Below, in pieces: positions 3,916 through 62,665 of a DNA stretch of 64,000 nucleotides (positions within the stretch are counted from its first letter, which is position 1; every line of letters starts with the position of its first letter). Made by a program: the position numbers and the translations under genes. The stretch is from positions 1 through 64,000 of the forward strand of contig JBCCYL010000021.1 in the NCBI GenBank assembly GCA_039189765.1. The letters are read 5' to 3'. The DNA is from Cyanobacteria bacterium P01_F01_bin.150 (lineage in GTDB: Bacteria > Cyanobacteriota > Cyanobacteriia > CAKZMO01). The notes under the pieces were generated by a model. The model saw only the letters and a program-made list of their open reading frames with translations, was not told where the DNA came from and made no database searches.

Positions 3916-4134
3916 ATAGCCTCCTAATTATTAATTTTAATTTCTTTGAAAGATAGAAGTTATCAGGCCATAGAAATAAGACGTAGAAGTAAATTTAGAA
4001 AAAATTATCCCATATAATGGAGCTGGCTATAAACTATATTTTCTACGAATATATATCAATGAATAGCATGGCTCAATATTATTGAATATTTAGCAGAAAC
4101 ATAATAATACTATATTTACTAAAAAACAAGGATT

Positions 4135-4158
4135 TAAAATATCAGTACTGATATTTTA
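4135..4158. repeat. Perfect 24-bp palindrome TAAAATATCAGT|ACTGATATTTTA
   Basis: Read directly from the sequence. Confidence 0.85.
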
Positions 4159-4160
4159 TG

Positions 4161-4211
4161 ATTATGCTTCATGCGTTTTTGTCGTAATTATAAAAACGCA
4201 TGAAGCATAAT
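4161..4211. repeat. Perfect 20-bp inverted repeat with 11-nt loop (possible terminator or protein-binding site)
   Basis: ATTATGCTTCATGCGTTTTT ... AAAAACGCATGAAGCATAAT. Confidence 0.85.
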
Positions 4212-4435
4212 TTCTGGTCAAAGGGGATTGGATGGCTGATAGCTATATGAACCTAGGCTATAAAATCAAAACTACTTGTGCAAAGAGCATCAAGAGTTTT
4301 TTGTACCACTAAGCAAGTGAAATAGATTTTTAATAAAATAACTGAATATCTGCTGCATGTAGAGATAATATATCCTAAATATATTGAAATTAATATTCAG
4401 AGTATATGGAGATAAGGTAGAAATTTGCTGATTAT

Positions 4436-5166
4436 CTAACTAACCCAATCTTTGCAGTCCCAGTTTAAATTGCGTTCCAAACTATTTATCTCATATTCAA
4501 ACGTGAAATTTAAAAAATCCCGTTCTTTTTTACTCGTTTTTTATGAATATAGAATAAGAATAAATATTCTTTGATATGACTGTCTGAAATGTTTTGATTC
4601 CCAAAAACTTACGTATCTCTTTGAGCATATTCCTGGGCTTTTTCTGCAAGTATTCCATTGCCAAAACCTATTCCTGTGTAGAAAAGGTCTAAATCCTGCG
4701 TAATTGTTCTAAGTAGAATCCTCGATCAATATATGAATAGATTCTGTGCTGCTGCAGCAATAATTCTTGGCATCTCTTTTGCTCATTTCTTATTGCATCC
4801 CAAAATGAGAAATCATCGGCATTATGCTCTTTCAATAGGATTTCTTAACAAGATAATTAACTTTATTTTAGGACTATATTCCCAAATCCGCTTCGGAGCA
4901 TCGTACCAATACATATAGATAGGAGTAGCCTCGCCTAGTAATTTATGAGATTCTTTTATCCTGAACCAAAAATGATAGCTGATGTAATCTGAATTTCTAT
5001 CAGAGAAGTAAATCTAATTGTCAAAAAAATGAGCTTCCTTTCTTTTTGACATGCATAATTACGGATGTTCTCTTAAGTAGGAATATAGAGCAGAAGTTCT
5101 TCCTTTCTGCGTCCCACATATTATAAAGTTAACCAACTGATTAGAGTCAAGATTTACTTTATTCAT
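4436..5166 (-). pseudogene. Sulfotransferase pseudogene (Sulfotransfer_1 type), absent from the ORF track
   Basis: Manual translation: MNKVNLDSNQLVNFIICGTQKGRTSALYSYLREHP*LCMSKKKEAHFFDN*...GEATPIYMYW...LLRNPIERA* then a frameshift, ...FWDAIRNE...YIDRGFYLEQLRRI*...LNWDCKDWVS*. Several in-frame stops and at least two frameshifts. Confidence 0.8.
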
Positions 5167-5526
5167 TGCTACAACATCTACAATAGTCTATATTACTTTA
5201 GTGAGATAATAAATAATATTTCTAAAATGATAATCTATGGTCCAATCAATCGGTTAGAAAATAAACTTGTTTGGAATGGATATTAGCTTTACTCAAGTTT
5301 AGATTGCCCTTTTGTTTCCGAAAAACGATCAGCTTTTACAAGCTCAATAAGCTGATAAGTTTAACGTTTTGGTTGCATAAGCCCACATTGCAGCCAATAA
5401 ACTAAATTACTGCACTCTGCTCCTCAAGTCGCGAATGGAATGTCTGCTAAGGGTGCTAGTTTATCTGGCCGATTGGGGTATGAATTAGCCTGTAGAACTA
5501 CTATACATTGCAATAGGGATGTGATT

Positions 5527-6312
5527 ATGAAACATTTACACTCAACTCTCTTCTCTATCGTGATTGCCTTCTTCTCCTCCTGTGCGATCGCCCTTCTCCA
5601 ACAACCTCGCCTCCAAAAACTTACGGAATCTTCTGCTGTTGTATCGCAAGATGCTCTAGATCAGCAGATGGAACAAGAAAATTTACGTTTGGCTCTGTGG
5701 GAGCAAACACCTGCTCTGGGGTTTGATAACCTGATGGCGGACTGGGCATTTCTAAGTTTTCTTCAGTATTTTGGGGATGATGAAGCACGTGCAAAAACAA
5801 GCTACACCCTAAGTCCAGAGTACTTTGAAGTGATTTTGGATAAAGATCCTTATTTCTGGGATGCCTATCTGTTTTTACCGGGTAGTACCACCATGTATGC
5901 GGCTCAACCCGATCGCACCATTGAAATTATGGAAAAGCATCTGCCGAAGCTATCGCCCAAGGTGCCCGATCGTGCCTACTTTATTTGGAGATGGAAAGCA
6001 ACGGATGAACTATTGTTTCTGTCTGATCCTGATGCGGCCATTGATTCCTATCAAACGGCTGCTGATTGGGCATCAGAGTACGATACGAAAGAAGGGCAGC
6101 TGATCGCCCAAATTTCTCAACGATCGGCAGAATTTTTGAAGGATAATCCGGCCAATAGAGGCGTTCAGGTGTCTGCTTGGATGAGCGTGTACGAGAATGC
6201 GTTTGATGATGCGACACGACAGTTGGCGATTGCCAATATTCGGAAATTAGGGGGTGACGTGATTTTTGATGAGGATGGGAATGTGGTGGAAGTGAGAACG
6301 CCGCAGGAGTAG
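5527..6312 (+). CDS. Conserved cyanobacterial membrane-anchored helical (TPR-like) protein
   Basis: N-terminal hydrophobic segment and motif GFDNLMADWAFLSFLQYFGD. ATG 5527 preferred over 5440. I recall the family near type IV pilin loci (unverified). Confidence 0.7.
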   Translation: MKHLHSTLFSIVIAFFSSCAIALLQQPRLQKLTESSAVVSQDALDQQMEQENLRLALWEQTPALGFDNLMADWAFLSFLQYFGDDEARAKTSYTLSPEYFEVILDKDPYFWDAYLFLPGSTTMYAAQPDRTIEIMEKHLPKLSPKVPDRAYFIWRWKATDELLFLSDPDAAIDSYQTAADWASEYDTKEGQLIAQISQRSAEFLKDNPANRGVQVSAWMSVYENAFDDATRQLAIANIRKLGGDVIFDEDGNVVEVRTPQE

Positions 6313-11602: not shown

Positions 11603-11866
11603 TCAGAGATCAAATAGCCCCCATGATCTCAAACTTTGTATTGCTGGAGAGAAAACTTTGTTTCGGTTCCGTTTTCTCCATGACTTAAGAATAGTAGATT
11701 TGCCGCTAAGAAACCTCCTCCATTTAGAACGATTAAGGGGTGGAGTTGATTGACAAGAACGAATACTCTGATCGGGTGATGATTGGAGACGCAAGCGATA
11801 AGGACTGATAATTTTGTGATCGTGGTCTGTTGCTGAAGTGATGGAAGTGCTTTGCGATCGCTCCAC
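11603..11866 (-). CDS. Hypothetical small basic protein (87 aa)
   Basis: ATG-initiated ORF that ends just before the inverted repeat; no recognisable motif. Confidence 0.3.
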   Translation of the reverse strand: MERSQSTSITSATDHDHKIISPYRLRLQSSPDQSIRSCQSTPPLNRSKWRRFLSGKSTILKSWRKRNRNKVFSPAIQSLRSWGLFDL

Positions 11867-11976
11867 CCATCAACGATTGCCCTCACCCATTTATTCATCT
11901 CCAAGAACCTGAGTAGCCAAAGTTTCTCAGTTGAAGCGTTTGACCAATTCTCAAGAGAGTTGCACTCACGCCGAAG

Positions 11977-11999
11977 TCCAAAATCCAAAATCTAAAATT
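11977..11999 (+). repeat. STRR heptamer (TCCAAAA)n overlapping the NLR stop codon
   Basis: TCCAAAATCCAAAATCTAAAATT. Confidence 0.65.
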
Positions 12000-14277
12000 T
12001 AGGGCCAGGGGGAGTTATGTTTGCTGCCATCTCCTGAATCAGTGGGTGGTCCGATAAGACCTCCTCCTGACCTGCCACCATGGTTGCTTTTACAAACTCA
12101 AACAGCTTATCAATGGTCGTTTTAACATGGGTATGATTATGTCCTAGACGCTCGATAAAAATGGATAGTGCTTGCAGATAGAGAGGTTCCGCTTCAGCAA
12201 ATCGATCGACATCAGTGTAAAGTTCAGCCAGATTTAAAGACGTGATAGCAACATTAGGATGGTCATCTCCCAAAGTTTCTCTATCAATCTCCAAGGCTTG
12301 TTGGTAGAGAGGGCCTGCTTTCTCGTAGTAGCTTTGCGAGTGATATAATGACGCGAGATTACTCAAGCTTTCAGCCACATCAGGATGGCGATTATCAAGA
12401 ACCTTACACCTCATCTCTAATGCCTGTTGGTAGTAGAGTTCAGCTTCCTTGTAGCGCCTTTGTGACCAATATAACAATCCGAGATTATTCAAACTGTCAG
12501 CAACTGCGGGGTTACAATCCCCAAATAACTCATGCTTCAGGTCTAAGGACTGCTGGCAATAGGTTGTTGCCTCTTCATAGCGACCTTGTAAACGATATGA
12601 TTCTGCAAGATTATGCAAACCGGTGGCCACATTAGGATTGCGATCACCAAGCAACTCACGACTCATCTCTAAGGCCTGATGGCAGAAAGTTTCAGCTTCC
12701 TCATAGCGTCCCTTCGAAAGATATAATCCTGCGAGATTACCTAGACTTTTGAAAACAGCGATGTTACGACCGCCGAGCAACTTACGACCCATCGCTAACG
12801 CCTGCTTGTAAAGGGGTTCAGCTTCCTCATAGCGTCCTTGAGCTTCATATAATGACGCGAGATTGTTCAAACTGGCGGCGACATCGGGGTGGCATTCACC
12901 AAGGCGATCGCGCACCACCTCTACACACTGCTTAGCCCAGGGCTCTGCCAACCCATAGTCTCCCTGGCCTTTATAAAATTTACCTAAGCCAGTAAAGATG
13001 GCCAATAAATCATTATCAGCAGCCCACTCTAAGCTATTGGCAATTACATTCTGCAAATGGGGCACTACTTCCCTAAAGGATTGAATTTGTGCCTGAGTGT
13101 TTGCCCACGGGAGCTGTTGGGCCTCCATCGCTAATATCTCACAGACTAATGATTTACGACAGGATTCAATCTGATGGGCACGAATCCACCGATCGAGCCA
13201 TCGCCACAGTCTTCTCTTGGATACCGGATCAACAGGTTCATTAAATTTATTCTGGGCATACTCTCGCACTATTTGATGGAGCTGATAGCGACCGTCTCCC
13301 ACTCGCTTGACCAAATGCAGGCGAAGCAGCTCCTCATCCCGTGTTTGGGCTAGCCGTTCAGCTTCCACATCTGCCATCGCCTGTTCCACCCACTGCCATC
13401 GGATGGGCGCAAGGCCAAAGACGCTTAGGACATAGAGCAATTCCTGGGGTAATCGACTCTGCTGGCCAATATCCTGCCAGCTTAAATCAAACGCCGCCGT
13501 CACCCCCAGCGATGCGGTCATATCCCCTGCGTTGTTAGCCTTAAGCAATGCCTGGGATTCAATTGACTGGATTTCCAACCGCTGACGCAACTCTGTTAAC
13601 AATAGATCGGGTTTTCGTTCCAAATATCGTCCCACCAGTTCGAGGCCTAGAGGTAAATATCCCAACCATTCGCAAAGCCAATCCGCCACCTCGGGTTCAG
13701 CCTCCAGCCGCTTTGGTCCAGCCAAATCTCTTAACAGAATCAACGCAGCTTCTGAGGCCAGCACGTCTAACGCTAGACTTTTAACCCCAGTGCCCAACTG
13801 GAGCCGTGTTGTGACCAACACCTTAAATCGAGCATCCGTTGGCGGCAGGTAGGGCTGAATGGCTTTGTAATCGGTGACATCATCAAACACGATAAGGACA
13901 TATCCGTCCGGCCAATTTCGCCAGCATGCCGCCACCTGTAGCGATAGCGTCTGGGTGGGATCAATGGTCATTCCCATCGAACCCGTCGCAAAGCCCACTA
14001 GCTGGGTGCCTACATCTGCCCCGCGACACGTCAGCCAGCACGCACCAGCAGGATAGACTCCACTGTCCCAATAGCGCTGGGCATACTGGAGAGCCAGTTC
14101 CGTTTTGCCAATGCCTCCCATCCCCTGAATTGCACTAATGGCAACCTGATCGCCCTCCTGAAGCGATCGGTGGATCTGCCCAAGCTTCTCCTCCCGCCCT
14201 ACAAATGTACGGGAACCACTGCGGGGAATATTTTGTGACGGCGTTATCTTTGTCCGGGCCGATGCAGACGAATCTAG
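11992..14277 (-). CDS. NB-ARC (STAND) + TPR-repeat NLR-like protein; open frame extends to 14277 with no ATG/GTG/TTG before the P-loop
   Basis: PSQNIPRSGSRTFVGREE..., Walker A GMGGIGKT, Walker B LIVFDDV, VLVTTR, GYLPLGL, YQLHQIV; about 7 42-aa TPRs (PDVAASLNNLASLY..QGRYEEAEPLY). Confidence 0.85.
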   Translation of the reverse strand, partial: LDSSASARTKITPSQNIPRSGSRTFVGREEKLGQIHRSLQEGDQVAISAIQGMGGIGKTELALQYAQRYWDSGVYPAGACWLTCRGADVGTQLVGFATGSMGMTIDPTQTLSLQVAACWRNWPDGYVLIVFDDVTDYKAIQPYLPPTDARFKVLVTTRLQLGTGVKSLALDVLASEAALILLRDLAGPKRLEAEPEVADWLCEWLGYLPLGLELVGRYLERKPDLLLTELRQRLEIQSIESQALLKANNAGDMTASLGVTAAFDLSWQDIGQQSRLPQELLYVLSVFGLAPIRWQWVEQAMADVEAERLAQTRDEELLRLHLVKRVGDGRYQLHQIVREYAQNKFNEPVDPVSKRRLWRWLDRWIRAHQIESCRKSLVCEILAMEAQQLPWANTQAQIQSFREVVPHLQNVIANSLEWAADNDLLAIFTGLGKFYKGQGDYGLAEPWAKQCVEVVRDRLGECHPDVAASLNNLASLYEAQGRYEEAEPLYKQALAMGRKLLGGRNIAVFKSLGNLAGLYLSKGRYEEAETFCHQALEMSRELLGDRNPNVATGLHNLAESYRLQGRYEEATTYCQQSLDLKHELFGDCNPAVADSLNNLGLLYWSQRRYKEAELYYQQALEMRCKVLDNRHPDVAESLSNLASLYHSQSYYEKAGPLYQQALEIDRETLGDDHPNVAITSLNLAELYTDVDRFAEAEPLYLQALSIFIERLGHNHTHVKTTIDKLFEFVKATMVAGQEEVLSDHPLIQEMAANITPPGPKF

Positions 14278-14703
14278 CTAATAGCTGATATTAACATTAC
14301 CCTTAACCTCCTGAAATACGGGAGCTTCAGGATTATTAATTAAAGTTCCAGAACCGTTGTTAATGCAAATGCTTTTACCTTGACTATTGTCAATATTGAT
14401 TTGCTGCTGAATCTCCTGGGTTAGGGTCCGCAACTCTTTCCCATACTCTGGATCCGCATCAATTACAGGCTGTAATATCTTGGCGACTTCCGCCAAGCCT
14501 TCATCAGAGCCATTTTCTGCCTTTGCCAATGCCAACTCTGCTTTGGTATTGCCCGTAAATCGTTTAGCAATCAGTGATCGTAGCTTTTTAACCTGCTTGC
14601 TGACCTGTAGATATACCGTTTCTCCCAGCTTCTTACTTAGGGTTTCAGTCAGTGCTTTAAAGGCAATAGAGGCAATTACCGTAGCTGTAATGGGGTCTGT
14701 CAT
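14278..14703 (-). CDS. Bell-like helical-domain protein with a C-terminal N/G/I/V-rich putative amyloid signalling motif
   Basis: MTDPITATVIASIAF...DPEYGKELRTLTQEI helical domain, then INIDNSQGKSICINNGSGTLINNPEAPVFQEVKGNVNISY*. Lies directly upstream of the NLR. Confidence 0.7.
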   Translation of the reverse strand: MTDPITATVIASIAFKALTETLSKKLGETVYLQVSKQVKKLRSLIAKRFTGNTKAELALAKAENGSDEGLAEVAKILQPVIDADPEYGKELRTLTQEIQQQINIDNSQGKSICINNGSGTLINNPEAPVFQEVKGNVNISY

Positions 14704-15394
14704 TGGTTTAGGCTTTTAAGTAATAACGCTCCTTCCGTTATCGCTCATTTATTACGATATTGACCACTGATGTCAGGATATTTTCATTTTTTATGCTCGT
14801 GCATAGTGTTTCTTCTCAGACTCTCAGCGTGGAACCCGATCTTTAATCTGTGAATAAGGCTTAATTGTGCCTCGCGTCCTGAAGGCAACTGAGGTGGTCT
14901 AACGATCTGTTTTTATTAAAAAATCGTTACGGTGTAGAGTGGAAGGCGCAGTCTATTCAGCAATAATTTGTTGCCAAATATCCGAGAACAGCCGCCTGAT
15001 CCCATGAGGCTGACCAATCCTGTCATAATTAGAAACTGGAGCATCGACCGAGATATAGGCAAAGACATAGGCAAACCAATGAAGAATCGAAGGAGAATCC
15101 GCGATCGCCATCCCCACACTGCTAATGGACGTTTATCTGAGGACGGCATCCATATTGATCATGGAGCATGTTTTGAGGTAGAGACCAATACTTATCCAAA
15201 GCTGGATCTTCAAGACGATTATCGTATTGAACGGTTAGCCTCTCCCTGCTTGTCCGTGCCCCTTCCGTCCTCCTTATCTGGCATCCTAACTCTCTAGTCC
15301 GCCTATTTTTCTTCTCGACTCGTTAATTTGCGCTACCGTTAAATTCTCGACCGAAGACGTTGGTCCTTCCCGATCGCTATTGCATTCAAATATT

Positions 15395-18300
15395 ATGCAC
15401 GAATTTTCTACCCTAGTTGAACTGTTACGCTATCGTGCGCAACATGATCCGCATAAAACCGTATTTACATTTTTACGTGATGGTGAAATCGAGGCGGAGG
15501 TGTTGACGTACCTGGAGCTCGATCGGCGGGCACGGGCGATCGCGGCCAAGCTTCAGTCTATCGGTGCGGAAGGACAGCGGGCACTGCTTCTTTATTCGCC
15601 AAATCTCACCTTTATTACGGCATTCTTGGGCTGTCTCTACGCAAAAGTCCTAGCCGTTCCAGCCTATCCTCCTCGCCCCAATGCGACCATGAAGCGCTTA
15701 CGGTCAATGATGACCGATGCGGGAGCAACGGTCGCGTTGACCACCCAGCAGCTGTTGGGCAATTTTGGCAAGCTGCTGGATAACAATCCTGACTTTGCCA
15801 ATCTCAATTGGGTAACAACTGAGGGTTTAACTCAAGAACCCACGATTGACGGTTGGGCCTCCAGTTGGAAACCCTCCTCTATTTCTCCCAATGCCCTAGC
15901 ATTTCTGCAATATACCTCAGGGTCCACTGGACTACCTAAAGGCGTTATGGTCAGCCATGGCAATTTAATTCATAATGCCAAGGCCATTCAGGAACGATTT
16001 AATGATACGTCTAGAAGTCTTGTTGTATCATGGCTACCGCCTTACCATGACATGGGACTCATTGGCGGTATTCTCCAGCCTGTTTATTTCAATATGCCCG
16101 GTGTCTTGATGGCTCCGGTCAGTTTCTTGCAGCGTCCTTTCCGCTGGCTACAGGCTATTTCTAGCTATCGCGGCACAACCAGCGGCGGACCTAACTTTGC
16201 CTATGACCTGTGTCTACGTCAGGTAACCCCAGAACAGCGGGATACGCTGGATTTAAGCAACTGGAGTCTGGCCTTTTCGGGCGCAGAACCGGTTCGAGCT
16301 GAGACGATTCGGCAGTTTACCGAATACTTTGGTCCCTGTGGGTTTCGTCCTGAGGCGTTTTATCCCTGCTATGGCATGGCGGAGGCGACCCTGTTTGTCT
16401 CTGGATGCGATCGCACTCAAACGCCCACCTGCACCATCGTTGATGGAGCGGCACTAGAGCAAAATACGGTGGTGCCCAGTGAGCCAGATAGCCAGCAAGC
16501 TGCCATCCAAGCTGCTATCCGAGCTGATAATGAGGAAGGGATCGATCGCCGTCAGCTTGTTGGCTGTGGTATCCCCTCCACATCCCAACACATCCGTATT
16601 GTTGATCCCTCCACCCTTGAACCGTGCCCCGATTTAGCAGTGGGAGAAATTTGGGTGTCGGGTCCCAATGTGGCTCAAGGCTACTGGAATCGACCTCAGC
16701 AAACGGCTGAGACCTTCCAGGCTAAAATCCTCGCCACTGGAGAGGGGCCATTTCTCCGTACGGGGGATCTGGGCTTTATAAAAGACGAAGAACTATACGT
16801 TACTGGCCGTCTAAAAGATTTAATTGTGATCCGGGGGCTAAACCACTATCCCCAGGATATTGAGGCAACGGTGGGAGAAGCCCATGAGCAGATCCGATCG
16901 GGCCAGGGAGCCGCCTTTTCCGTTGATGTTAAAAATGAAGACGGGGTCCGGGAAGAACGGCTGGTGATCGTTCAAGAAGTCAAACGAACGGCTTTGCGGC
17001 GATTAAAAACCGGCGAAATCGTAACAGCGATTCGACAGGCCGTCTCCCAACACCATGCCTTACAGACCTATGCCGTAGTGCTGCTAAAAACCGGCAACGT
17101 ACCCAAAACCTCCAGCGGCAAGATTCAGCGCCACGCCTGTAAGAGAGGATTTTTAGACAATAGCCTTAAAGTTGTGGGGCAGTGGAGAGAAGGAGAACTA
17201 AAGGCAGAAGGCAGAAGGCAGAAGGCAGAAGGCGTGGGCGAGATCCCGTCCAAAATCCAAAATCTAAAATCCAAAATCCAAAATCCTCTCAATGATGCCC
17301 TGCGGCTGTCGATTAATACGTCCAATGAGGCTCGTCGGCGTTTGCGGATTCCTCAAGCTGGGGCGATCGCGTCTATCCAAACTTGGCTGATCAACCAGGT
17401 GGCTCGGATGCTGAAGGTGACGCCGGATATGATTGATATTCATGAGCCGCTGGCTCGCTATGGGTTAGATTCCATTGCGGCGGTGCGATTGTCGGGGGCG
17501 TTGGAGGATTGGTTGGGGCGATCGCTGTCTCCGACCCTGGCGTATGACTATCCGTCCATTGCGGCGCTGTCAAAATATTTGAGTGCGGAGCCTGATGCCT
17601 TGGCGACCGAGGCGGAACTGGTGCGTCAGTCATCCCAGTACAAACGTCGTATTAGTGATGAGGCGATTGCTATTGTCGGCATGGGCTGTCGCTTTCCTGG
17701 GGCGAATAATCCGGAGGAGTTTTGGCAGTTACTACGGGAGGGCCGGGATGCCATTACCGTGCTGGATGAGGGCGATCGCTGGTCCGGACATCGGTCGGCT
17801 AAAGTCGGGGGATTTTTAAGTCAGCGGGTGGATGAATTTGACCCCCAATTTTTTGGGATTTCTCCCCGTGAGGCAAATCGTATGGACCCCCAGCAGCGTC
17901 TGTTGCTGGAGGTCAGTTGGGAAGCCTTGGAGCAAGCAGGAATCGCGCCTACTCATTTGGCCGGAACGTCCACGGGAGTCTTTGTGGGCATCAGCAGTAG
18001 CGACTATTCCCATCTGCAAGCACGGGAAATGACCACCGATCCCTACTCCGGTACGGGTAACGCCCACAGCATTGCGGCAAATCGATTGTCCTATGTCCTG
18101 GATTTACGAGGCCCTTCCCTGACAGTGGATACCGCCTGCTCATCGTCGCTGGTTGCGCTCCACAATGCCACCCGGTCTTTACAAAATGGCGAGTGTGACC
18201 AGGCGATCGCCGCTGGGGTCAATCTTATCCTGTCCCCCGATTTAACCTTAACCTTTGCCGATGCCGGGATGCTAGCGGCAGATGGTCGTTGTAAGACATT

Positions 18301-21300
18301 TTCGGCGGCTGCGGATGGCTATGTGCGGGGGGAAGGCTGTGGGGTGGTGATTCTTAAGCGCCTCAGTGATGCTCAGAGAGACGGAGATAGCGTGCTGGCG
18401 GTGGTTAAAGGCGCAGCCGTTAATCAGGATGGCCGCAGCAATGGCTTGACGGCTCCCAATGGCCTGGCCCAGCAGGCGGTTATTCAAGCGGCCCTACAGC
18501 GGGCGGATGTCTCGGCAATCGATATTCAGTATGTAGATGCCCACGGGACAGGCACCGTATTGGGTGATCCGATTGAGCTAAATGCATTGAAAGCTGTCCT
18601 ATCCCAAGGGCGAGAGTCTAATCAGCGCTGTTGGATTGGGTCGGTTAAGACAAATATCGGTCATTTAGAAGCAGCGGCGGGAATGGCCAGCCTAATTAAG
18701 GTGATCTTGGCGCTTCAGCATAGTGAACTGCCGCCCCACCTGCATGTCCAGGAGCTTAATCCTCACGTATCTTGGGAGGATGGACCGCTGACGGTGGTAT
18801 CGAATCGACAGGAATGGAGTCGTTTGGATTCCCCTCGTTTAGCTGGTATTAGCTCCTTTGGCTTTGGTGGCACCAATGCCCATGTGATTGTGTCAGAGGG
18901 ACCTGTTGCCAATAACAGTGATAAGCACGACGCAGATAGCGCTAAGGAAAATTCCCAAACGGCTGGGCTACGGGCCTTAACCCAACCTCCGCCATTATCC
19001 GCTAGTCATTATTTGCTAACTCTGTCGGCTAAAACTCCTAATGCTTTGGCGGATCTCACGCAATCCTATAGTGATTTTTTAAATCGATATCCCGATGAGA
19101 GCTTGGCAAACATTTGCGCGACAGCTCACCTGGGGCGATCGCATTTTCCCCATCGTTTGGCAATTATTGCCCAATCGAATGATGACCTTGGCAAACAGCT
19201 TCAGCTATACAAAAAGCAGGAGCCTTCTGGGACCAGAATTTCTAATGAAATCAACCCTGGGGGGGCGCTGTCTAAACTGGCTTTTCTATTCACAGGTCAA
19301 GGTTCCCAGTATCCAAATATGGGATATGACCTGTACCAAAGCCAACCTGTGTTTCGTAGGGTTATTGACGAGTGCGATCGCATTCTTCAAACCCACCTAG
19401 AATATCCTTTACTCCACGTTCTCTATCCTGAAGAACGACGTAAAAAGAGCCATGAACGACCTTTACCTGAGGGCCTAATCCATCAGACTCGCTATACTCA
19501 ACCCATATTATTTGCGGTGGAATATGCGCTGGCGGAGCTATGGCAATCCTGGGGCATCTATCCCGATGTGGTGATGGGCCACAGCGTTGGAGAATATGTA
19601 GCGGCCTGTGTCGCTGGCATTTTGAGTCTGGAGGATGGTCTGAGACTGATTGCGGCGCGATCGCGTCTAATGCAGAATCTGCCAGCGAATGGAGCCATGG
19701 TTGCCGTTTTTACCTCAGCACAACAGGTGACTTCGATTATTGAAGCCTACGCTCAAACCAACGGTTCAGTTGCTGTCGATATCGCCGCCGTTAACGGCCC
19801 TGAGAATACGGTCATTTCTGGTGAGAAAGGAGCGATCGCCACTGTCACTAACGTTTTTAAAGCGCAAGGCATTACAACCAAACCGCTTAATGTCTCCCAT
19901 GCTTTTCACTCATCGCTAATGGCCCCCATCCTCAGTAGCTTTGAGGCGATCTCCCAAACCATTACATTTCATCCTCCCCAACTGCCCATTGTCTCTAACG
20001 TGACGGGAACCTTATATGCGTCCTCAACGGAGGAGACCACCTTAGAAACTGGTACAAACAATGGCAGTGCTAATCCAATGTGCTCCCATACCTACTGGAG
20101 CCGCCACATCCGACAGGCAGTCCAGTTTGCTCCCAGTATGGAAACCCTATTTAAGTCAGGCTACAGCACATTTTTGGAAGTCGGCCCCAAACCCACCCTC
20201 CTGACCATGGCCCAACGCTGCCAAGTAAAGGCAGAAGGCAGAAGGCAGAAGGCAGAATCGTCGGCCAACTCTCCAACTCCCCAACTTCCCAACTCCCCAA
20301 CTCCCCAACTCCCCAACTCCCCAAACCAATGGCTCCACAGCCTCCGCCCCAATCAGCCAGATTGGTCAGTGCTCTTAAAAACCGCAGCCCAACTCTACAC
20401 CTCTGGCCATCCCCTCAATTGGAATGGTATTGCCGCTGGACAGTCCGTACAGCGAATTCATCATTTACCCACCTATCCTTGGCAAAAGCAGCGGTTTTGG
20501 TTTGCGCCGCAATGGGATGTTCAGCCGTGGGATGTTCAGCCGTTGACAAATGGCCTTACGTCTTCAGAACAGGCATCTGTGGCCTCTAGCTCAGACTTAC
20601 TATATGGATTGGAATGGCGATCGCAACCCCGTCAGGCTAATGCCGCAAAACTTGATAGGTCAGGTACTTGGATTATTGCGACAATGGATGGCCAACCATC
20701 GGCACTTGCTGCTCAAATTGCCCATAGATTAGACGAACAGGGGCAAAAACAGCTAACCGTTGAGATTGGCGATCGCCCTGCTGAGGCGTTGGCCGATCAC
20801 CTTGGGACCATTGAAGGTAATATTGACAGAGTATTGTTGGTTGCTTCCGACAATGCCAATAAAAATAGCCCCAATCTTTTCCAACCCTGCCAAGCCGCAT
20901 TAACGCTGGTGCAGTCGCTAGTGCAACTAAGCCAGGGCGATCGCCAATCCCTCCGCAATTCAGACCCATATCCTAATCTCTGGATCATTACCCAAAATAG
21001 CGTTCTGATTGATGATCCATCATCGCAGGGACTCTTGAATTCCAATGAGGTCACTCCAGAAGCAGAGTTATCAGGTATAACCCTTGCCCAATCAACTTTA
21101 TGGGGGCTGGGAAAAGTTGTTGCCTTAGAACATCCCGACCTATGGGGCGGCCTTCTTGACGTGGAGGTAAGCCATAATCAACCGCCATCTGTAGAGGACA
21201 AGGTTATTACCGCTATCATTGACGACTGTTCGGATAGTGACGGCGAAAGTGCGATCGCCTTCCACCATAATCAACGCTATGTCCAGCGCCTAACTAGCCT

Positions 21301-24300
21301 TAGCCCTCTCTCTCAAAAGCAAGAACTAGATACAACAGAACCATCAATCGCCCCCCCGACCAAAGGCGAACTAAAGGGGAACTCCAGTCAATCCAAAATG
21401 CTACAAGATACCTACCTAATTACAGGGGGACTTGGCTCCTTGGGCCTAACGATTGCTCAGTGGTTGTTTGAACAGCATGGTATGACTCATCTCACTTTGG
21501 TGGGGCGACGGCAGCCATCAGAAGCGGCCCAGAAGGCGATCGCTCAGCTTCAAAACCAGGGCGCAACGATTCACACGGCTCAGGCTGATATTGCCCAATC
21601 CAATGAAGTTGCTAATTTGTTACAACAGCTCCAATCTCAGGGGCTAAATTTAAAGGGCATTATTCATGGAGCTGGAGTACTACAAGACGGTGTTCTCCAA
21701 AGTCAAACCTGGGACAATTTTGCGACAGTGCTAGCTCCCAAAGTCAATGGAGCCTGGAATCTACACCAGCTTACCCAGTCCTACGATTTAGACTGCTTTG
21801 TACTATTTTCTTCGGTGGCATCTTTGCTTGGCTCCCCTGGTCAAGGCAACTATGCCGCAGCAAATGGGTTTATGGATACCCTGGCCCAATATCGGCAACA
21901 TCAAGGTCTACCTGCGCTTAGCATTAATTGGGGTCCCTGGGCGCAAGGGGGGATGGCAAGCAGCGTTGGTGATGCCTTGCAGGAGCGGTTAACCCGTAAT
22001 GGTTTTAACCTCCTGGAACCTGAACAAGCCCTAACGACTTTATCCAATCTTATGTTTGGCGATCCCCAGTCATCATTACCAGCCCAAGTGGGTGTTGCAG
22101 ATATTGATTGGACCCAGATGGGTAAGCGGTTAACGACCGCTCAGCGGACATTTTTATCTCCAGTTTTGGAGAATCGGAATCGCTCCTTTGAATCAATAGT
22201 TGATTCAACTATTGATGGGACATCGTCAATGGGTGTCTCTCGCCTCATTGATACGGTGTTGGCAGTGGCAGTAGGCGATCGCTCCACCTTTTTTGCTACC
22301 TACCTCCAGCAGCAAATCAGCCAAGTCCTCCAGCTACCAGAAAATACCCTATCTGGCGACAGCAATCTAATGGACGTGGGCATGGACTCTTTGATGGTTA
22401 TGGAATCCATCAATCAACTACGGCAAGACTTTAGCCTGATGCTCTATCCTCGGGAGTTTTACGAACATCCCACCATTGGGACACTATCGGCCTATTTAGC
22501 CCAAGAGTTTAATCGGATGTACTCAGAGGATTCTTTCCAAACCCCTGAGTCCACTAAGGGCTTACCCCTGGTTATCCCTACTCTCCAAGGCATCAGCGAT
22601 GCAGTAACCCTACACCAAGTTAAGCGGCTCCCTCCCGCCGTGTTTATTCTTTCCAGCCCCCGCTCTGGCTCTACGCTGCTGCGGGTGATGTTGGCAGGCC
22701 ACTCTCGCCTATTTGCCGCGCCCGAACTGCACCTGCTGCCCTTTGACCGGATGGCAGAACGGCAAGAACAATTGGGAGAGTCCCACCTTAGTGAGGGGCT
22801 AGAGCGATCACTGATGGACCTTAACCGTTGGGATAGCGAGACTAGCCGCATCCATGTTCAGCAGTGGCTCGACCAAAATGCCCCTACAGCAGACGTATAT
22901 GCAGCCATCCAAAGCATGGCCCAAGGACGCACCTTGGTCGATAAATCACCTACCTACGCCATGCATCGTGCCACATTGGATCGGGCTGAAGCCATTTTCC
23001 AAAATGCCAAATATATCCATCTGGTCCGTCACCCTTACTCGGTGATGGAATCTTTCGCGAGGATGCGAATGGATAAATTGTTGGGGATTCCCGCAACCAA
23101 TCCCTATGGTCTGGCCGAGCGAATTTGGAGCCAAAGCAACCAAAATATCCTTGATTTTGCTAGCACTATTGATGCCAATCGCCTCCATTTGCTCCAGTAC
23201 GAAGACTTGGTACGGGATCCTGCTGCTACCCTAAAGCAGCTATGTCAATTTCTGGGAATTGACTTGGAGGACTCACTGCTCAATCCCTATGAAGGCGATC
23301 GCATGACCGACGGAGTTTATGAAAAATCCCTGTCCTTGGGCGATCCCAACTTCTTACTTCATCAAAAAATAGATTCATCTTTAGCAGACGCATGGAAAAC
23401 AATTGATTTACCCCATCGGTTAGGCGAGCAGGGACAGGCGATCGCCCAAACCTTCCGCTATAAGCTACCTCAAGACAGCCTTACTACTAACCATAGTCTT
23501 GCTAGTGATAGTCTTGCTAACGAGACATTCCAAGACTCGCAAAACCTTACTGTCCAAAAAGATGATGCGTTGGGTTTCCTCGTGTCAACCCAACCTACGT
23601 CCGCGATATCTGCCGAGTTACTGGAGGCGCTCGCACCCACTGAGCACACTGTCACGCTCAACGGTCTGACTCATAAAATTTGTATTTGGGGTGATCAGGA
23701 TGCACCTCCGGTTGTTTGTATTCACGGCGTCTTAGACCAAGGCTATATCTGGCACCCTGTCGCTCAATCGTTAGTCCAGCAAGGATATCGAGTCATTGCC
23801 CCTGATTTACGCGGCCACGGCCAGTCCTCCCATGTCGGTCCCGGCGGCTCCTATCATCTCCTAGATTTTCTCTCCGATATTGACGCCGTTATTGATTGGT
23901 TATACCCTACTTTGAAGGCAGAAGGTAGAAGGCAGAAGGCTGAAATAAAGGCAGAAGACGGAACTCCCCAACTCCCCAACTCCCCAACTCCCCAACTCCC
24001 CAACTCCCTAACTCTCGTGGGTCACTCCATGGGGTCAATTATTGCAGCGCTATATGCTAGTAGCCGAACGGAGCGGGTGCGATCGCTCGTTATGGTGGAA
24101 ACAATTTTGCCTGCGGAAAAACGAGCTGAAGTTCGGGATCAGCTCACGACCTTACTTGATGCCCATTCCCAGACTCCAGACCATCCTATTTTTCCCGATA
24201 TTGAAACGGCAGCTCGACGGTTACGGCAAGGTACACCATCATTGCCGGAGGACTTTTCAATGGCCTTGGCTGATCGCATCTGTAAAGCAGCAGACGGAAA

Positions 24301-24583
24301 AGACGGCATTCAATGGGCCTGGGATCCTAAGTTGCGCAACCGCACTGGCATTGGCTTTAGCCGTATGCCGTTTGGTCGGTCCGATTACCTAAAATTACTC
24401 AGTGAGCTGTCCGTACCTGTGACCCTAGTGTATGGCGATCGCAGCACCTTTAACCGCCCCGCAGATCTGGAGGCTCAGGCCAATGCCCTATCCCAAGCCC
24501 AACGGGTTGTACTGTCTGGTGGTCACAATATCCATATCGATGCGTTTTTAGATTTGGGTAAACTTATTGGAACTCAATTCTAA
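15395..24583 (+). CDS. ols: Olefin synthase, type I PKS FAAL-ACP-KS-AT-KR-ACP-sulfotransferase-thioesterase
   Basis: FAAL YTSGSTGLPKG; ACP GLDSI; KS DTACSSS, HGTGT, NIGHLE; AT GHSVG/HAFHS (malonyl type); KR GGLGSLG, YAAAN; ACP GMDSL; ST SSPRSGSTLLR; TE GHSMG and GGHNIH. This is the CurM-like ST-TE architecture. Confidence 0.92.
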   Translation: MHEFSTLVELLRYRAQHDPHKTVFTFLRDGEIEAEVLTYLELDRRARAIAAKLQSIGAEGQRALLLYSPNLTFITAFLGCLYAKVLAVPAYPPRPNATMKRLRSMMTDAGATVALTTQQLLGNFGKLLDNNPDFANLNWVTTEGLTQEPTIDGWASSWKPSSISPNALAFLQYTSGSTGLPKGVMVSHGNLIHNAKAIQERFNDTSRSLVVSWLPPYHDMGLIGGILQPVYFNMPGVLMAPVSFLQRPFRWLQAISSYRGTTSGGPNFAYDLCLRQVTPEQRDTLDLSNWSLAFSGAEPVRAETIRQFTEYFGPCGFRPEAFYPCYGMAEATLFVSGCDRTQTPTCTIVDGAALEQNTVVPSEPDSQQAAIQAAIRADNEEGIDRRQLVGCGIPSTSQHIRIVDPSTLEPCPDLAVGEIWVSGPNVAQGYWNRPQQTAETFQAKILATGEGPFLRTGDLGFIKDEELYVTGRLKDLIVIRGLNHYPQDIEATVGEAHEQIRSGQGAAFSVDVKNEDGVREERLVIVQEVKRTALRRLKTGEIVTAIRQAVSQHHALQTYAVVLLKTGNVPKTSSGKIQRHACKRGFLDNSLKVVGQWREGELKAEGRRQKAEGVGEIPSKIQNLKSKIQNPLNDALRLSINTSNEARRRLRIPQAGAIASIQTWLINQVARMLKVTPDMIDIHEPLARYGLDSIAAVRLSGALEDWLGRSLSPTLAYDYPSIAALSKYLSAEPDALATEAELVRQSSQYKRRISDEAIAIVGMGCRFPGANNPEEFWQLLREGRDAITVLDEGDRWSGHRSAKVGGFLSQRVDEFDPQFFGISPREANRMDPQQRLLLEVSWEALEQAGIAPTHLAGTSTGVFVGISSSDYSHLQAREMTTDPYSGTGNAHSIAANRLSYVLDLRGPSLTVDTACSSSLVALHNATRSLQNGECDQAIAAGVNLILSPDLTLTFADAGMLAADGRCKTFSAAADGYVRGEGCGVVILKRLSDAQRDGDSVLAVVKGAAVNQDGRSNGLTAPNGLAQQAVIQAALQRADVSAIDIQYVDAHGTGTVLGDPIELNALKAVLSQGRESNQRCWIGSVKTNIGHLEAAAGMASLIKVILALQHSELPPHLHVQELNPHVSWEDGPLTVVSNRQEWSRLDSPRLAGISSFGFGGTNAHVIVSEGPVANNSDKHDADSAKENSQTAGLRALTQPPPLSASHYLLTLSAKTPNALADLTQSYSDFLNRYPDESLANICATAHLGRSHFPHRLAIIAQSNDDLGKQLQLYKKQEPSGTRISNEINPGGALSKLAFLFTGQGSQYPNMGYDLYQSQPVFRRVIDECDRILQTHLEYPLLHVLYPEERRKKSHERPLPEGLIHQTRYTQPILFAVEYALAELWQSWGIYPDVVMGHSVGEYVAACVAGILSLEDGLRLIAARSRLMQNLPANGAMVAVFTSAQQVTSIIEAYAQTNGSVAVDIAAVNGPENTVISGEKGAIATVTNVFKAQGITTKPLNVSHAFHSSLMAPILSSFEAISQTITFHPPQLPIVSNVTGTLYASSTEETTLETGTNNGSANPMCSHTYWSRHIRQAVQFAPSMETLFKSGYSTFLEVGPKPTLLTMAQRCQVKAEGRRQKAESSANSPTPQLPNSPTPQLPNSPNQWLHSLRPNQPDWSVLLKTAAQLYTSGHPLNWNGIAAGQSVQRIHHLPTYPWQKQRFWFAPQWDVQPWDVQPLTNGLTSSEQASVASSSDLLYGLEWRSQPRQANAAKLDRSGTWIIATMDGQPSALAAQIAHRLDEQGQKQLTVEIGDRPAEALADHLGTIEGNIDRVLLVASDNANKNSPNLFQPCQAALTLVQSLVQLSQGDRQSLRNSDPYPNLWIITQNSVLIDDPSSQGLLNSNEVTPEAELSGITLAQSTLWGLGKVVALEHPDLWGGLLDVEVSHNQPPSVEDKVITAIIDDCSDSDGESAIAFHHNQRYVQRLTSLSPLSQKQELDTTEPSIAPPTKGELKGNSSQSKMLQDTYLITGGLGSLGLTIAQWLFEQHGMTHLTLVGRRQPSEAAQKAIAQLQNQGATIHTAQADIAQSNEVANLLQQLQSQGLNLKGIIHGAGVLQDGVLQSQTWDNFATVLAPKVNGAWNLHQLTQSYDLDCFVLFSSVASLLGSPGQGNYAAANGFMDTLAQYRQHQGLPALSINWGPWAQGGMASSVGDALQERLTRNGFNLLEPEQALTTLSNLMFGDPQSSLPAQVGVADIDWTQMGKRLTTAQRTFLSPVLENRNRSFESIVDSTIDGTSSMGVSRLIDTVLAVAVGDRSTFFATYLQQQISQVLQLPENTLSGDSNLMDVGMDSLMVMESINQLRQDFSLMLYPREFYEHPTIGTLSAYLAQEFNRMYSEDSFQTPESTKGLPLVIPTLQGISDAVTLHQVKRLPPAVFILSSPRSGSTLLRVMLAGHSRLFAAPELHLLPFDRMAERQEQLGESHLSEGLERSLMDLNRWDSETSRIHVQQWLDQNAPTADVYAAIQSMAQGRTLVDKSPTYAMHRATLDRAEAIFQNAKYIHLVRHPYSVMESFARMRMDKLLGIPATNPYGLAERIWSQSNQNILDFASTIDANRLHLLQYEDLVRDPAATLKQLCQFLGIDLEDSLLNPYEGDRMTDGVYEKSLSLGDPNFLLHQKIDSSLADAWKTIDLPHRLGEQGQAIAQTFRYKLPQDSLTTNHSLASDSLANETFQDSQNLTVQKDDALGFLVSTQPTSAISAELLEALAPTEHTVTLNGLTHKICIWGDQDAPPVVCIHGVLDQGYIWHPVAQSLVQQGYRVIAPDLRGHGQSSHVGPGGSYHLLDFLSDIDAVIDWLYPTLKAEGRRQKAEIKAEDGTPQLPNSPTPQLPNSLTLVGHSMGSIIAALYASSRTERVRSLVMVETILPAEKRAEVRDQLTTLLDAHSQTPDHPIFPDIETAARRLRQGTPSLPEDFSMALADRICKAADGKDGIQWAWDPKLRNRTGIGFSRMPFGRSDYLKLLSELSVPVTLVYGDRSTFNRPADLEAQANALSQAQRVVLSGGHNIHIDAFLDLGKLIGTQF
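17201..17286 (+). repeat. In-frame STRR repeats inside ols: (AAGGCAG)4+ and (TCCAAAA)5
   Basis: Encode KAEGRRQKAEG and SKIQNLKSKIQN in the FAAL-ACP linker. Confidence 0.9.
20228..20324 (+). repeat. In-frame STRR repeats inside ols: (AAGGCAG)4 + (CCAACTCC)7
   Basis: Encode KAEGRRQKAE...NSPTPQLPNSPTPQLPNSP at the end of the AT domain. Confidence 0.9.
23915..24008 (+). repeat. In-frame STRR repeats inside the ols TE domain
   Basis: Encode KAEGRRQKAEIKAEDGTPQLPNSPTPQLPNS just before LTLVGHSMG. Confidence 0.9.
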
Positions 24584-24723
24584 TCTTCTATCTCTCAGTA
24601 GTACTTTTGAAATATGATGGAACATGCAGAACAGGCACATTTATGGGTACATCCATTAAATTGATGTCTGCAATGCTGCCATTAAACTACATTTAGGTTG
24701 TTAAGCTCCTGATAGGATTCGCC

Positions 24724-25509
24724 ATGTCCCATGACATCACAATAAAAATTGTTTTATCTGGGACAGACATGCAGCCTGGAAATATTCGATCGAAAGAAAT
24801 TGCAGAAGTCATTGAATCTATAGAGGATGCCATCGCTGCAACCGTTATCAGCAAAAATCCAGAGTTTAGAAAAGAAGACATTCGGATCGGCTTAAAGCGC
24901 ATTCATGAAGGCAGCATTGACCTAGAATTTTCTCCAAACCGATTAGAGCTGACATTACCTGCAACCCAAAAGATCGCTAAATCAATTAGAGATAATAACT
25001 TTAGTGATATTCCCCACGCTTCCATCAGCTCTCTTAAAAAAATATCTGCTTTTACCCGTCGCCATCAGTGCAATGCTGAATTGGCTACCTGCAACGGCAT
25101 GATAGAATCTCTAGCGATTTTAACTCCAGACACGGAAATCCCTGATACTCATTCAATTTCAGGAGAAACAACCCTATATGGGGAGATTATGCGCGTTGGA
25201 GGAGCCGAGCCTAAAATTCAGTTTAGAACATTATCAGGGCAAATAATTTACTGTAGTGCTTCCAAGGACGTAGTTAAACGCGCAGGTATGAAGCTTTACA
25301 CAGAAGTAGGGTTAAATGGTACGGCGGCATGGAACTCAGAAACACTAGAAATTGACACATTTCATGTGACGGGGATATCTGACTACCAAGAGGGTTCTCT
25401 AGTGGAAGCATTTGAGGCTTTCAGAGCTACAGTCCAAGATTCTTTTGACCATGTCGAAGATGTAGACCAACTTGTTCGTAAGACGCGTTATGCCAGCCCT
25501 GAGGTCTAG
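24724..25509 (+). CDS. Hypothetical protein (261 aa), partner of the PIN gene
   Basis: Long ORF whose stop abuts the next ATG; beta-rich C-terminal half (GETTLYGEIMRVGG). Confidence 0.75.
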   Translation: MSHDITIKIVLSGTDMQPGNIRSKEIAEVIESIEDAIAATVISKNPEFRKEDIRIGLKRIHEGSIDLEFSPNRLELTLPATQKIAKSIRDNNFSDIPHASISSLKKISAFTRRHQCNAELATCNGMIESLAILTPDTEIPDTHSISGETTLYGEIMRVGGAEPKIQFRTLSGQIIYCSASKDVVKRAGMKLYTEVGLNGTAAWNSETLEIDTFHVTGISDYQEGSLVEAFEAFRATVQDSFDHVEDVDQLVRKTRYASPEV

Positions 25510-25998
25510 ATGAATTTAGTTTGTTTTGATACGCAGATATTAATTTGGGGTGTAAAACAGCAAGCAACTCCTGGACAAGAAGCCAATATTGAAAAGGCAA
25601 GGCACCTTATCCAAATGTGTGATGAAAATAATATAAGAGTTATTGTTCCTTCTATTGTGGTTGCCGAACTTTTGTGTAATTTGCCTAAAAAAATTCATAA
25701 TGATTTTAGACAACTAATGCAAAATCGGTTCATTGTTTCACCATTCGATACGCAGGCAGCACTTCATTTTGCCAACATGTGGCAGAGTAGATCTACAAAT
25801 CGGGGCGGAATATCCCGTTCAGAAATGAAAGCTGATTTTATGATTATTGCAATTGCGTTAGCGCACAAAGCTGAATGTATTTATAGCGAAGATGATGGCC
25901 TAACTAAGTTTGCCAAAGACTACATTTTGGTTAAGCCGTTGCCCATAGTGACCAAACAGCTTCCCATCAAAAATTTTGACCAAGGTCTTACTGACTAA
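25510..25998 (+). CDS. PIN-domain (VapC-like) ribonuclease
   Basis: VCFDTQILIW, PSIVVAELL, KADFMIIAIA, IYSEDD acidic PIN motifs. Confidence 0.8.
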   Translation: MNLVCFDTQILIWGVKQQATPGQEANIEKARHLIQMCDENNIRVIVPSIVVAELLCNLPKKIHNDFRQLMQNRFIVSPFDTQAALHFANMWQSRSTNRGGISRSEMKADFMIIAIALAHKAECIYSEDDGLTKFAKDYILVKPLPIVTKQLPIKNFDQGLTD

Positions 25999-62578: not shown

Positions 62579-62665
62579 GCGGAACTGGCGGAATTGGTAG
62601 ACGCGCTAGATTCAGGTTCTAGTGTCCGCTTTTTGGACATCCGGGTTCAAGTCCCGGGTTCCGCA
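62579..62665 (+). tRNA. trnL: tRNA-Leu (anticodon CAG)
   Basis: Acceptor stem GCGGAAC/GTTCCGC+A; D arm GGCGGAATTGGTAGACGC; anticodon arm CTAGA-TTCAGGT-TCTAG; long variable arm; T arm CCGGG-TTCAAGT-CCCGG; CCA not encoded. Confidence 0.95.

Follow-up and report, generated by a model that had tools for sequence, protein, structure and literature searches.

The window analysed here is a stretch of 64,000 nucleotides from Cyanobacteria bacterium P01_F01_bin.150 (contig JBCCYL010000021.1, positions 1 to 64,000). On its minus strand, a small gene and a gene encoding a NOD-like receptor (NLR) share a single reading frame, interrupted by one TAG. The ATG at 14703 opens an open reading frame (ORF) of 141 codons (14281-14703), closed by the TAG at 14280-14278. 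After this stop the frame goes on with CTA GAT TCG TCT, translated as LDSSASARTKITPSQNIPRSGSRTFVGREE, and remains open for 761 codons, up to the TAG at 11994-11992. Readthrough of the first TAG would give a product of 141 + 1 + 761 = 903 residues. The downstream part of the frame encodes an NB-ARC domain with a Walker A motif (13579-14193, residues 29-233 after the TAG; Pfam PF00931, E 1.2e-12), then TPR repeats forming the putative sensor (12124-13059, residues ~407-718; Pfam TPR_10, TPR_12 and TPR_MalT, with E 1e-65 to 1e-69 for TPR_10/TPR_12 and 3.6e-69 for TPR_10). This is the composition of the NB-ARC-TPR STAND NTPases, and 2319 relatives of the window NLR were found at E ≤ 1e-10.

The 52 codons directly 3' of the TAG (14122-14277; LDSSASARTK...FVGREE...VAISAIQG), which form a linker and the segment preceding the P-loop, contain no ATG, GTG or TTG. 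The first canonical start is the ATG at 14121, i.e. the methionine of the Walker A motif GMGGIGKT (14101-14124). The Pfam NB-ARC domain begins upstream of this position, and a product begun there would be expected to miss the strand that precedes the P-loop. An earlier interpretation of this DNA from its letters alone (the sequence-only reading) had described the common frame, the absence of starts, the 903-residue product and the incomplete NB-ARC domain of any protein begun at 14121; all of these points were recovered, and its assignment of the receptor to the NB-ARC-TPR type agrees with the Pfam matches. Nevertheless, one stop parts two open segments of 100 codons or more at four places in the window, this stop being TAG at three of them, and one of the four pairs is an ordinary TAG ATG stop-start junction. 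Within the window alone the split frame is therefore not compelling, and the weight of the case rests on the relatives.

We then looked for relatives of the small protein. A word-index search returned four close relatives (68-82% identity, 140-142 aa). When they are aligned with the window protein, residues 1-105 are almost invariant and the last ~35 are variable and rich in N, Q and G, yet all five proteins terminate at one column. This alignment indicates that the small protein is genuine and conserved, and that the TAG marks its true end.

To these were added the plasmid relatives. A tblastn search of a plasmid collection with four queries gave 14 distinct loci of the family, which were all analysed alike. 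Seven of them have the clean layout of the window: L002, on plasmid gamma of Nostoc sp. PCC 7120, and L003-L007 and L011, in Acaryochloris marina S15, MBIC11017 and 'Moss Beach'. The two proteins of the Nostoc locus are WP_044520337.1 and WP_044520336.1 in RefSeq, and the MBIC11017 plasmids concerned are pREB4, pREB5 and pREB8. In these seven loci TGA closes the small gene, the Walker A motif lies in frame 165 nt downstream, and a second stop is absent. The peptide encoded after the stop, (L/V)ES(S/P)D.DR.KL.P, resembles LDSSASARTKITP of the window. The stop is followed directly by CTA in six of these loci (TGA CTA GAG TCG; TGA CTA CAG in L002) and by GTG in the seventh, L003. Taking the window and the plasmids together, the NLR is in frame with the small gene in 8/8 clean loci, a second stop occurs in none, the next codon is CTA in seven and GTG in one, and the stop itself is TGA seven times, TAG once and never TAA. 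The base before the stop is T in eight of nine loci (the window, L002-L007, L011 and L012), the exception being L003, the locus with GTG.

Canonical starts are also scarce after the stop in the plasmid loci. The first one is the ATG of Walker A in the window, L005, L006, L007 and L011; it lies at codon 29 in L004 (GTG, the V of FVGRE) and at codon 0 in L003, and none occurs within 63 codons in L002. Only L003 therefore has a canonical start before FVGRE, and six of the seven plasmid loci have no usable one. The NLR genes of this layout are annotated as intact, with roughly 740-1000 codons. For L003 and L004 RefSeq chooses a GTG, adjoining the stop in the former and within FVGRE in the latter; it makes the others begin at ATT (L002, L005, L006), ATA (L007) or ATC (L011, codon 50). 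The ATT, ATA and ATC starts, at non-homologous positions, are probably a work-around of the pipeline for the missing start.

The other loci offer a comparison. L008, L010, L013/14 and L015 are textbook pairs, whose NLRs begin at a GTG, TTG or ATG of their own and have an N-terminal region of ~100 residues with a copy of the tail motif (GFQTLVE.GGIANIG vs. GWQTKVEGGTAYIG on the small protein). Their NLRs are offset in frame by 0, 1, 0 and 0, the third with an extra stop, and the stops of their small genes are TAA, TAA, TAG and TAA, respectively. L009 (Acaryochloris 'Moss Beach' pMB08, 3948-5595) is also a canonical pair with a small gene ending in TAA; its NLR is frameshifted in Walker A and annotated as two overlapping fragments, as in a decaying copy. 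In L012, on plasmid p2 of Leptolyngbya boryana, the small gene is followed by TAG CTG AAG TCG TCG (L-K-S-S after the stop): the layout is kept as far as a G7 run located 13 nt past the TAG of the small gene (3921-3950), where the frame shifts. This shift could be a mutation, a sequencing error in the homopolymer or a phase-variable tract. A further match, H27 in strain NIES-2135, has identity and coverage equal to those of the L012 match. Finally, L016 joins the module to another domain, with no NLR. Some of the Acaryochloris pairs, L003, L008 and L015, adjoin ParM/StbA partition genes, and those of L008 and L015 lie directly upstream of a MobF relaxase gene. That the pairs recur at this site of conjugative or mobilizable plasmids may point to a role linked to the plasmid.

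The window layout also exists as uninterrupted proteins. The protein P0135 aligns colinearly with residues 1-377 of the read-through product, across the TAG (39% identity, E 4e-77). As it aligns as one colinear segment, the ORF pair of the window is homologous to a single natural polypeptide. The junction of P0135 reads ...PKDW-LNSSERDRTK, and the alignment is ambiguous at that point. If the stop corresponds to this W, a single transition would turn its TGG codon into either TGA or TAG, and insertion of Trp at TGA would restore the fusion. In a second protein, P0140, the module also precedes an NB-ARC without interruption.

The closest relative of the window NLR is P0008 (860 aa; 74% identity over the 300 residues searched). 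This protein begins with MESSDSARTKETPSQNIPRSG, a residue-for-residue match to LDSSASARTKITPSQNIPRSG of the window; 36/52 residues are identical in the start-less segment and 189/250 in the 250 residues that follow. P0008 and P0004, a relative of the small protein, are probably neighbours, each being on 13,078 bp of contig, and the start codon of P0008 would then sit at the first codon after the stop of the small gene, where the window has CTA. Neither P0008 nor the window NLR has an N-terminal domain or motif of its own, with only ~20 residues before NIPRSG..FVGRE. No second copy of the tail motif of the small gene was detected in the N-terminus of the window NLR, in the whole NLR or in the rest of the 64-kb window. 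The same motif at the C-terminus of an effector and at the N-terminus of its NLR, which defines pairs with bacterial amyloid signalling sequences (BASS), is therefore absent from the window; it is present in the sister loci L008, L010, L013/14 and L015 and would trivially be so in a read-through product. Outside the plasmids, the alignment of the small protein gave a single weak and apparently unrelated match among genome contigs (L001, Ferruginibacter; 36% over 42 residues, E 5e-4).

Selection on both halves was estimated from the Acaryochloris loci with the Nei-Gojobori method. For the 55 start-less codons, the dN/dS ratio (omega) was 0.14, 0.22, 0.12, 0.09 and 0.28 in the five pairs with dS <1, and 0.29 and 0.10 in two pairs with saturated dS; it thus lies between 0.09 and 0.29 in all seven pairs. 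Similar values were found for the NB-ARC domain (0.11-0.19) and for the helical domain of the small protein (0.10-0.26). Such values indicate that the start-less codons are translated in that frame. These omega values describe the plasmid relatives, dN/dS between the window and the plasmids being saturated and not informative. The sequence-only reading had argued that the stop is no random nonsense mutation, expecting a conserved in-frame stop with a conserved 3' context and a low dN/dS on both sides, and had named a sense codon in close homologues or relaxed selection on the NLR as signs of the contrary. Its argument held: the four close proteins and the seven plasmid loci all stop at the same place, and no relaxation was seen in the plasmid NLRs.

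The two halves have moreover been exchanged. L004 and L007 have near-identical small genes (dS 0.14 and 0.04) and NLRs of saturated divergence, whereas L003 and L007 show the reverse pattern, with near-identical NLRs (dS 0.10) and very different small genes. From this mosaic of dS, the halves have recombined at or near the stop junction (locus positions ~3929-4429). Such swapping of modules would meet little obstacle if the NLR can do without a co-evolved motif.

We next considered the context of the stop. After the TAG (14278-14280), the positions +4 to +7 of the window are CTA G (14274-14277); among the seven clean loci with CTA, this G is found in six, L002 having C. The codon CTA represents 13-17% of the Leu codons in these sequences. 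It follows the stop in 0/34 of the long ORFs of the window, of which two have C after the stop and 16 end in TAG. The chance of finding CTA in three lineages is ~0.003, a figure weakened by shared ancestry. Weak termination with C after the stop, above all UGA-C, is described as well documented in bacteria, UGA-C being part of the prfB recoding site (PMC5289835); the sequence-only reading, which knew of no bacterial evidence for CUAG as a leaky context, has to be corrected as regards the C at +4. In Escherichia coli, readthrough is reported to decrease in the order TGA, TAG, TAA, with mainly Trp inserted at TGA, and readthrough of UGA and UAG to rise under stress, cold and starvation (PMC11126739). 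In mammals, UGA_CUAG is given as the strongest known readthrough context, and altering the final G halves its effect (PMC9841425). The clean loci thus present the features of a weak context, with no TAA and with C at +4 and CTA in 7/8, together with a conserved downstream frame.

Other mechanisms of recoding were rejected. Frameshifting or hopping does not fit a downstream frame that is frame 0 and a codon before the stop that varies (TAT, ACT, ACA, ATT, GTT, AAT), nor do selenocysteine or pyrrolysine fit a site that has both TGA and TAG. Scans for promoter-like and terminator-like sites gave matches at chance frequency, none of them between the small ORF and the NLR. A possible small RNA hairpin (5 bp with an 8-nt loop, +12 to +29 after the stop, 14252-14269) pairs in 8/8 in-register loci, with one switch from U-A to C-G in three of them. 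It was spotted by eye in these same sequences and overlaps conserved codons, and its covariation score was equalled by 10 of 500 shuffles; we regard it as a weak lead only.

What kind of protein is encoded before the stop was then examined. An exhaustive profile search gave 140 cluster representatives at E ≤ 0.001, of which 109 have 111-180 aa, 21 more than 180 aa and 10 at most 110 aa. The word-index search had found no longer, fused relatives, whereas this profile search did. Among the 18 of these 21 longer representatives covered by a Pfam scan, the module is followed by an NB-ARC in two (P0135 and P0140); TIR is found in two (P0142, and P0175 which also has CHAT and TRADD-N), CHAT only in one (P0231), GUN4 in three, TPR in two and HEAT in one, and seven have no Pfam family. 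In P0151, P0168, P0261, P0142, P0175 and P0255, the helical domain and tail are joined to GUN4, TIR, CHAT-TRADD-N-TIR or HEAT. In P0226, P0208 and P0204, the module is joined directly to the winged-helix/TPR half of an NLR without its nucleotide-binding domain.

The AlphaFold2 model of the window protein, computed with 67 family sequences, contains helices at residues 7-16, 20-25, 28-48, 53-63, 67-83 and 85-106, the predicted local distance difference test (pLDDT) having block means of 69-87 for residues 1-100 and values under 50 for residues 106-141. We therefore distinguish a helical N-terminal domain (residues 1-106, 14386-14703), conserved in the relatives, and an N/Q/G-rich C-terminal tail (residues 107-141, 14281-14385) that carries a candidate amyloid-type motif ending in KGNVNISY. 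Across the family the tail follows a variable but motif-like pattern, ...QN..GG.G.Q...AP..QGG.G.T.NI...

The small protein begins with MTDPITATVIASIAF, i.e. M-T-D-P and then a hydrophobic helix, and the consensus start of the family is M-x-[D/E]-P...TAxAIAxLAF. Bell-domain proteins are described as ~120-140 aa long, with a hydrophobic first helix and an acidic residue at position 2 or 3 (bioRxiv 10.1101/2020.01.06.895854); the window protein has 141 aa, such a helix and an acidic residue at position 3. The Bell domain is given as a five-helix bundle akin to the HeLo/MLKL-type domains, and the model is all-helical over residues 7-106, in six segments. However, a fold search of the PDB gave nothing significant (best E 0.89, template modelling score ≤0.35), a PDB sequence search with the family profile gave at best a designed coiled coil (E 0.069), Pfam gave nothing for the small protein at E ≤ 0.1 except a chance match to KH_2, and neither NCBIfam nor PADLOC has a family matching it. 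A lead towards PF20701 (HetE-N), suggested in the Atlas by 14-26% of the members of neighbouring clusters, was dropped, as 0/67 members matched it at E ≤ 0.01. The Bell label of the sequence-only reading thus agrees with the published description in size, in the acidic third residue and hydrophobic first helix, in the presence of a tail and of a neighbouring NLR, in the cyanobacterial range and in the sister loci with paired motifs, and finds no counterpart in profile or fold matches. As the NLR also has no paired motif, we call the protein Bell-like and the locus is not a canonical BASS pair.

A programmed readthrough of the stop, to which we give a probability of roughly 0.6, best accounts for all of this together: a conserved layout with a weak stop and few starts behind it, selection on the start-less codons, an NLR devoid of motif, and sisters that are either fused or canonical. 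The locus would then be a two-product NLR immune module encoded by one frame with a deliberately weak stop. Most ribosomes would stop and release the 141-aa protein, presumably a membrane-targeting cell-death effector, perhaps pore-forming, kept inactive. A few would decode the stop as sense and produce the 903-aa protein, with the same domain and tail on the N-terminus of the NB-ARC/TPR receptor; much free effector and little effector-NLR fusion would result. Once the TPR sensor is triggered, the NB-ARC would oligomerise, and the clustered N-terminal tails would nucleate a fold; passed on to the free copies, this fold would activate them. Encoded by one sequence, the tails of both products would be identical by construction, and the ratio of receptor to effector would be set by the leakiness of the stop.

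Several observations weigh against this proposal. The stop of the window is TAG, generally less leaky than TGA, and in the E. coli reporter study the +4 base credited with higher readthrough is G rather than C (PMC11126739); for bacteria, an effect specific to CUA is hypothetical. Compared with frameshifting, readthrough is said to be uncommon in bacteria (PMC5373646), and the literature yielded no readthrough measurement for these loci or for any cyanobacterium. No stable RNA structure was found downstream: in five loci, the 121 nt around the stop fold no more stably than shuffles (z +0.05 to +1.31), and a large RNA structure after the stop was accordingly rejected. The fold search lent no support to a Bell fold of the putative effector. 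Moreover, the plasmid loci are not independent, five of them coming from closely related Acaryochloris plasmids; with about six lineages, the difference in TAA use between the two layouts falls from p = 0.005 (Fisher test) per locus to p = 0.08 per lineage. Finally, L012 and L009 show that genes of this family do decay, and the first codon after the stop is a potential start in two relatives, a point that bears on the main alternative.

This alternative is translational coupling, in which ribosomes would terminate and then re-initiate at or near the next codon or at a non-canonical start, giving two separate polypeptides, i.e. an effector and an NLR without N-terminal domain that interact in trans in some other way. 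The Met of P0008 aligned with the post-stop Leu of the window and the GTG of L003 (TGA GTG) indicate that re-initiation is possible at this codon and was maybe the ancestral mode. Bell and NLR genes are also reported to be usually tightly spaced or overlapping, suggesting polycistronic coupling (bioRxiv 10.1101/2020.01.06.895854), and the TAG ATG junction at 25507 of the window shows that such junctions occur in this genome. RefSeq, for its part, models the plasmid NLRs with ATT, ATA or ATC starts. These starts, however, are at non-homologous codons (16, 21, 29, 50) and would remove the conserved (L/V)(E/D)SS..RTK, which is also present in the fused protein P0135. The start codons of table 11 are TTG, CTG, ATT, ATC, ATA, ATG and GTG; the CTA found in 7/8 clean loci is not among them. 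Independent initiation, which the sequence-only reading had named as fatal to its idea, is thus disfavoured in these seven and favoured by P0008 and L003. Besides, an NLR without N-terminal domain or motif has no known signalling route, whereas the canonical sisters carry the motif, and coupling leaves the avoidance of TAA and the retention of CTA unexplained. We consider coupling unlikely as the general explanation, though it is the main rival.

A recent inactivation of the window copy, from a former stop-ATG pair or a fused gene, with the plasmid loci as independent or inherited wrecks, appears improbable. The window does lack the canonical start seen in P0008, its closest NLR relative, and NLRs of the family decay, by the frameshifts of L012 (G7) and L009 (Walker A) or by loss of the nucleotide-binding domain in P0226, P0208 and P0204. 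Yet 761 codons are still open past the stop in the window and the NLR genes of the plasmids are intact. The purifying selection estimated above for the start-less segment and the NB-ARC also goes against wrecks, as does the conservation of the stop and of CTA across lineages whose small proteins share only ~30% identity.

A sequencing or assembly error, a non-standard code or a suppressor tRNA making TAG a sense codon is hardly credible: a single base change would indeed abolish the stop and TAG is common in the window, both at the end of long ORFs and between in-frame segments, but the same layout is found in seven finished plasmid records from four strains, no single-codon reassignment fits since the relatives use TGA and not TAG, ordinary genes of the window end in TAG, among them the NLR and the gene preceding the PIN toxin, and the only tRNA in the 64 kb is a tRNA-Leu (anticodon CAG, 62579-62665, plus strand), with no suppressor tRNA.

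Within the readthrough proposal, the stop could in addition be a regulated gate, the fusion rising when termination is perturbed, so that the state of translation would arm or fire the death module. A phage that disturbs release factors or brings a suppressor tRNA would then raise readthrough. We consider this extension rather doubtful.

The proposed module can be compared with known systems. The Bell/NLR pairs with BASS motifs described by Dyrka, Saupe and colleagues (bioRxiv 10.1101/2020.01.06.895854) likewise comprise a protein of ~140 aa with an acidic residue at position 3, a hydrophobic first helix, a helical domain and an unstructured tail, encoded directly upstream of a co-directional cyanobacterial NB-ARC/TPR NLR, and their paired motif is found in our four textbook pairs. 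Unlike them, the NLRs of the window and of the seven plasmid loci have no motif or N-terminal domain of their own, mostly no start, and are in frame with the small gene. In the main text of this preprint, supplementary gene-pair tables apart, 'readthrough', 'stop codon', 'frameshift' and 'pseudogene' each occur zero times. The same preprint, along with the fungal HeLo/HET-S work that it cites, reports 'all-in-one' NLRs with an N-terminal Bell/HeLo-like domain, which is exactly the read-through architecture; P0135 and P0140, two of the 18 longer members scanned, are uninterrupted versions in our family, whereas the window is split by a stop and its free effector would be the main product.

The Bab/Agp abortive infection system of E. 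coli (bioRxiv 10.1101/2024.11.07.622273) is described as an adjacent effector and sensor with a common amyloid motif, the globular domain of the effector being related to pore-forming cell-death domains. It differs by its two ordinary genes, its other type of sensor and the absence of recoding, and PDB searches gave no sequence or fold link between it and the window protein. Effector-associated domains (EADs) of NTPase conflict systems (Kaur, Burroughs, Iyer, Aravind; PMC8195603) are defined by their distribution across partner domains, and our module similarly stands before STAND NTPases and is joined to TIR, CHAT, TRADD-N and further domains; unlike EADs, neither the window protein nor the 67 aligned members (E ≤ 0.01) match a Pfam EAD profile. 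Mammalian UGA_CUAG readthrough (PMC9841425, PMC4132726) has in common a weak stop followed by C-U-A-(G), a conserved downstream frame under purifying selection and, as in viruses and as proposed here, one mRNA giving a short abundant and a long rare product; the window case differs as a bacterial cellular or plasmid gene with no large stimulatory RNA structure. Viral sites with UGA-C or UGA-CUA include Q-beta A1 and the alphavirus and plant-virus classes. We found no earlier description of an effector/NLR gene split by readthrough in the literature searched, which lies mostly outside subscription journals; the word 'readthrough' occurs zero times in the Bab/Agp preprint and in the review PMC7889193.

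Finally, we looked at the surroundings of the pair in the window. Genes for PrpF, an amino-acid permease and a hydrolase lie downstream of it. On the opposite strand upstream, a gene at 15380-24583 (plus strand) encodes an olefin-synthase-type polyketide synthase of 3067 aa, with a fatty-acyl-AMP ligase, acyl carrier protein, ketosynthase, acyltransferase, ketoreductase, a second acyl carrier protein, sulfotransferase and thioesterase domains, in the order of the olefin-synthase / CurM-type polyketide synthases. Further on, at 24697-25996 (plus strand), an open segment ends with TAG and is followed at once by the in-frame ATG of a PIN-domain (VapC-like) toxin gene (25510-25995). This junction at 25507 served as an internal control. 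Just after the TAG of the NLR, an ORF of 119 aa with no Pfam match continues in frame (11629-11988, minus strand; TAG ATT TTG), and a strong terminator-like hairpin (11601-11579) lies just beyond it; this ORF may be a gene or a long 3' untranslated region. A general peculiarity of TAG in the window was rejected, the 25507 pair being an ordinary TAG ATG junction and the frame after the NLR having no Pfam match. The locus sits among ordinary genes and is not an obvious defence island.

Amyloid-signalling NLR systems of bacteria are described as two genes that are obliged to keep matching motifs. One frame with a leaky stop would supply both partners, an identical motif and a built-in ratio, and would let receptor and effector modules swap freely, as the mosaic plasmid loci suggest. 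Annotation pipelines currently assign improbable ATT, ATA or ATC starts to these NLRs or truncate them as far as the P-loop; the small proteins appear as hypotheticals with no relation to them. The layout is also present in a tractable organism, on plasmid gamma of Nostoc sp. PCC 7120. If confirmed, it would provide an example of programmed stop-codon readthrough in a bacterial gene, cellular or plasmid-borne, that is conserved and makes functional sense. Should the stop in addition be a regulated gate, there would be a class of bacterial immune systems with recoding as part of sensing, and the separated halves of such genes would account for many of the 'headless' NLRs and 'orphan' Bell proteins listed in databases.

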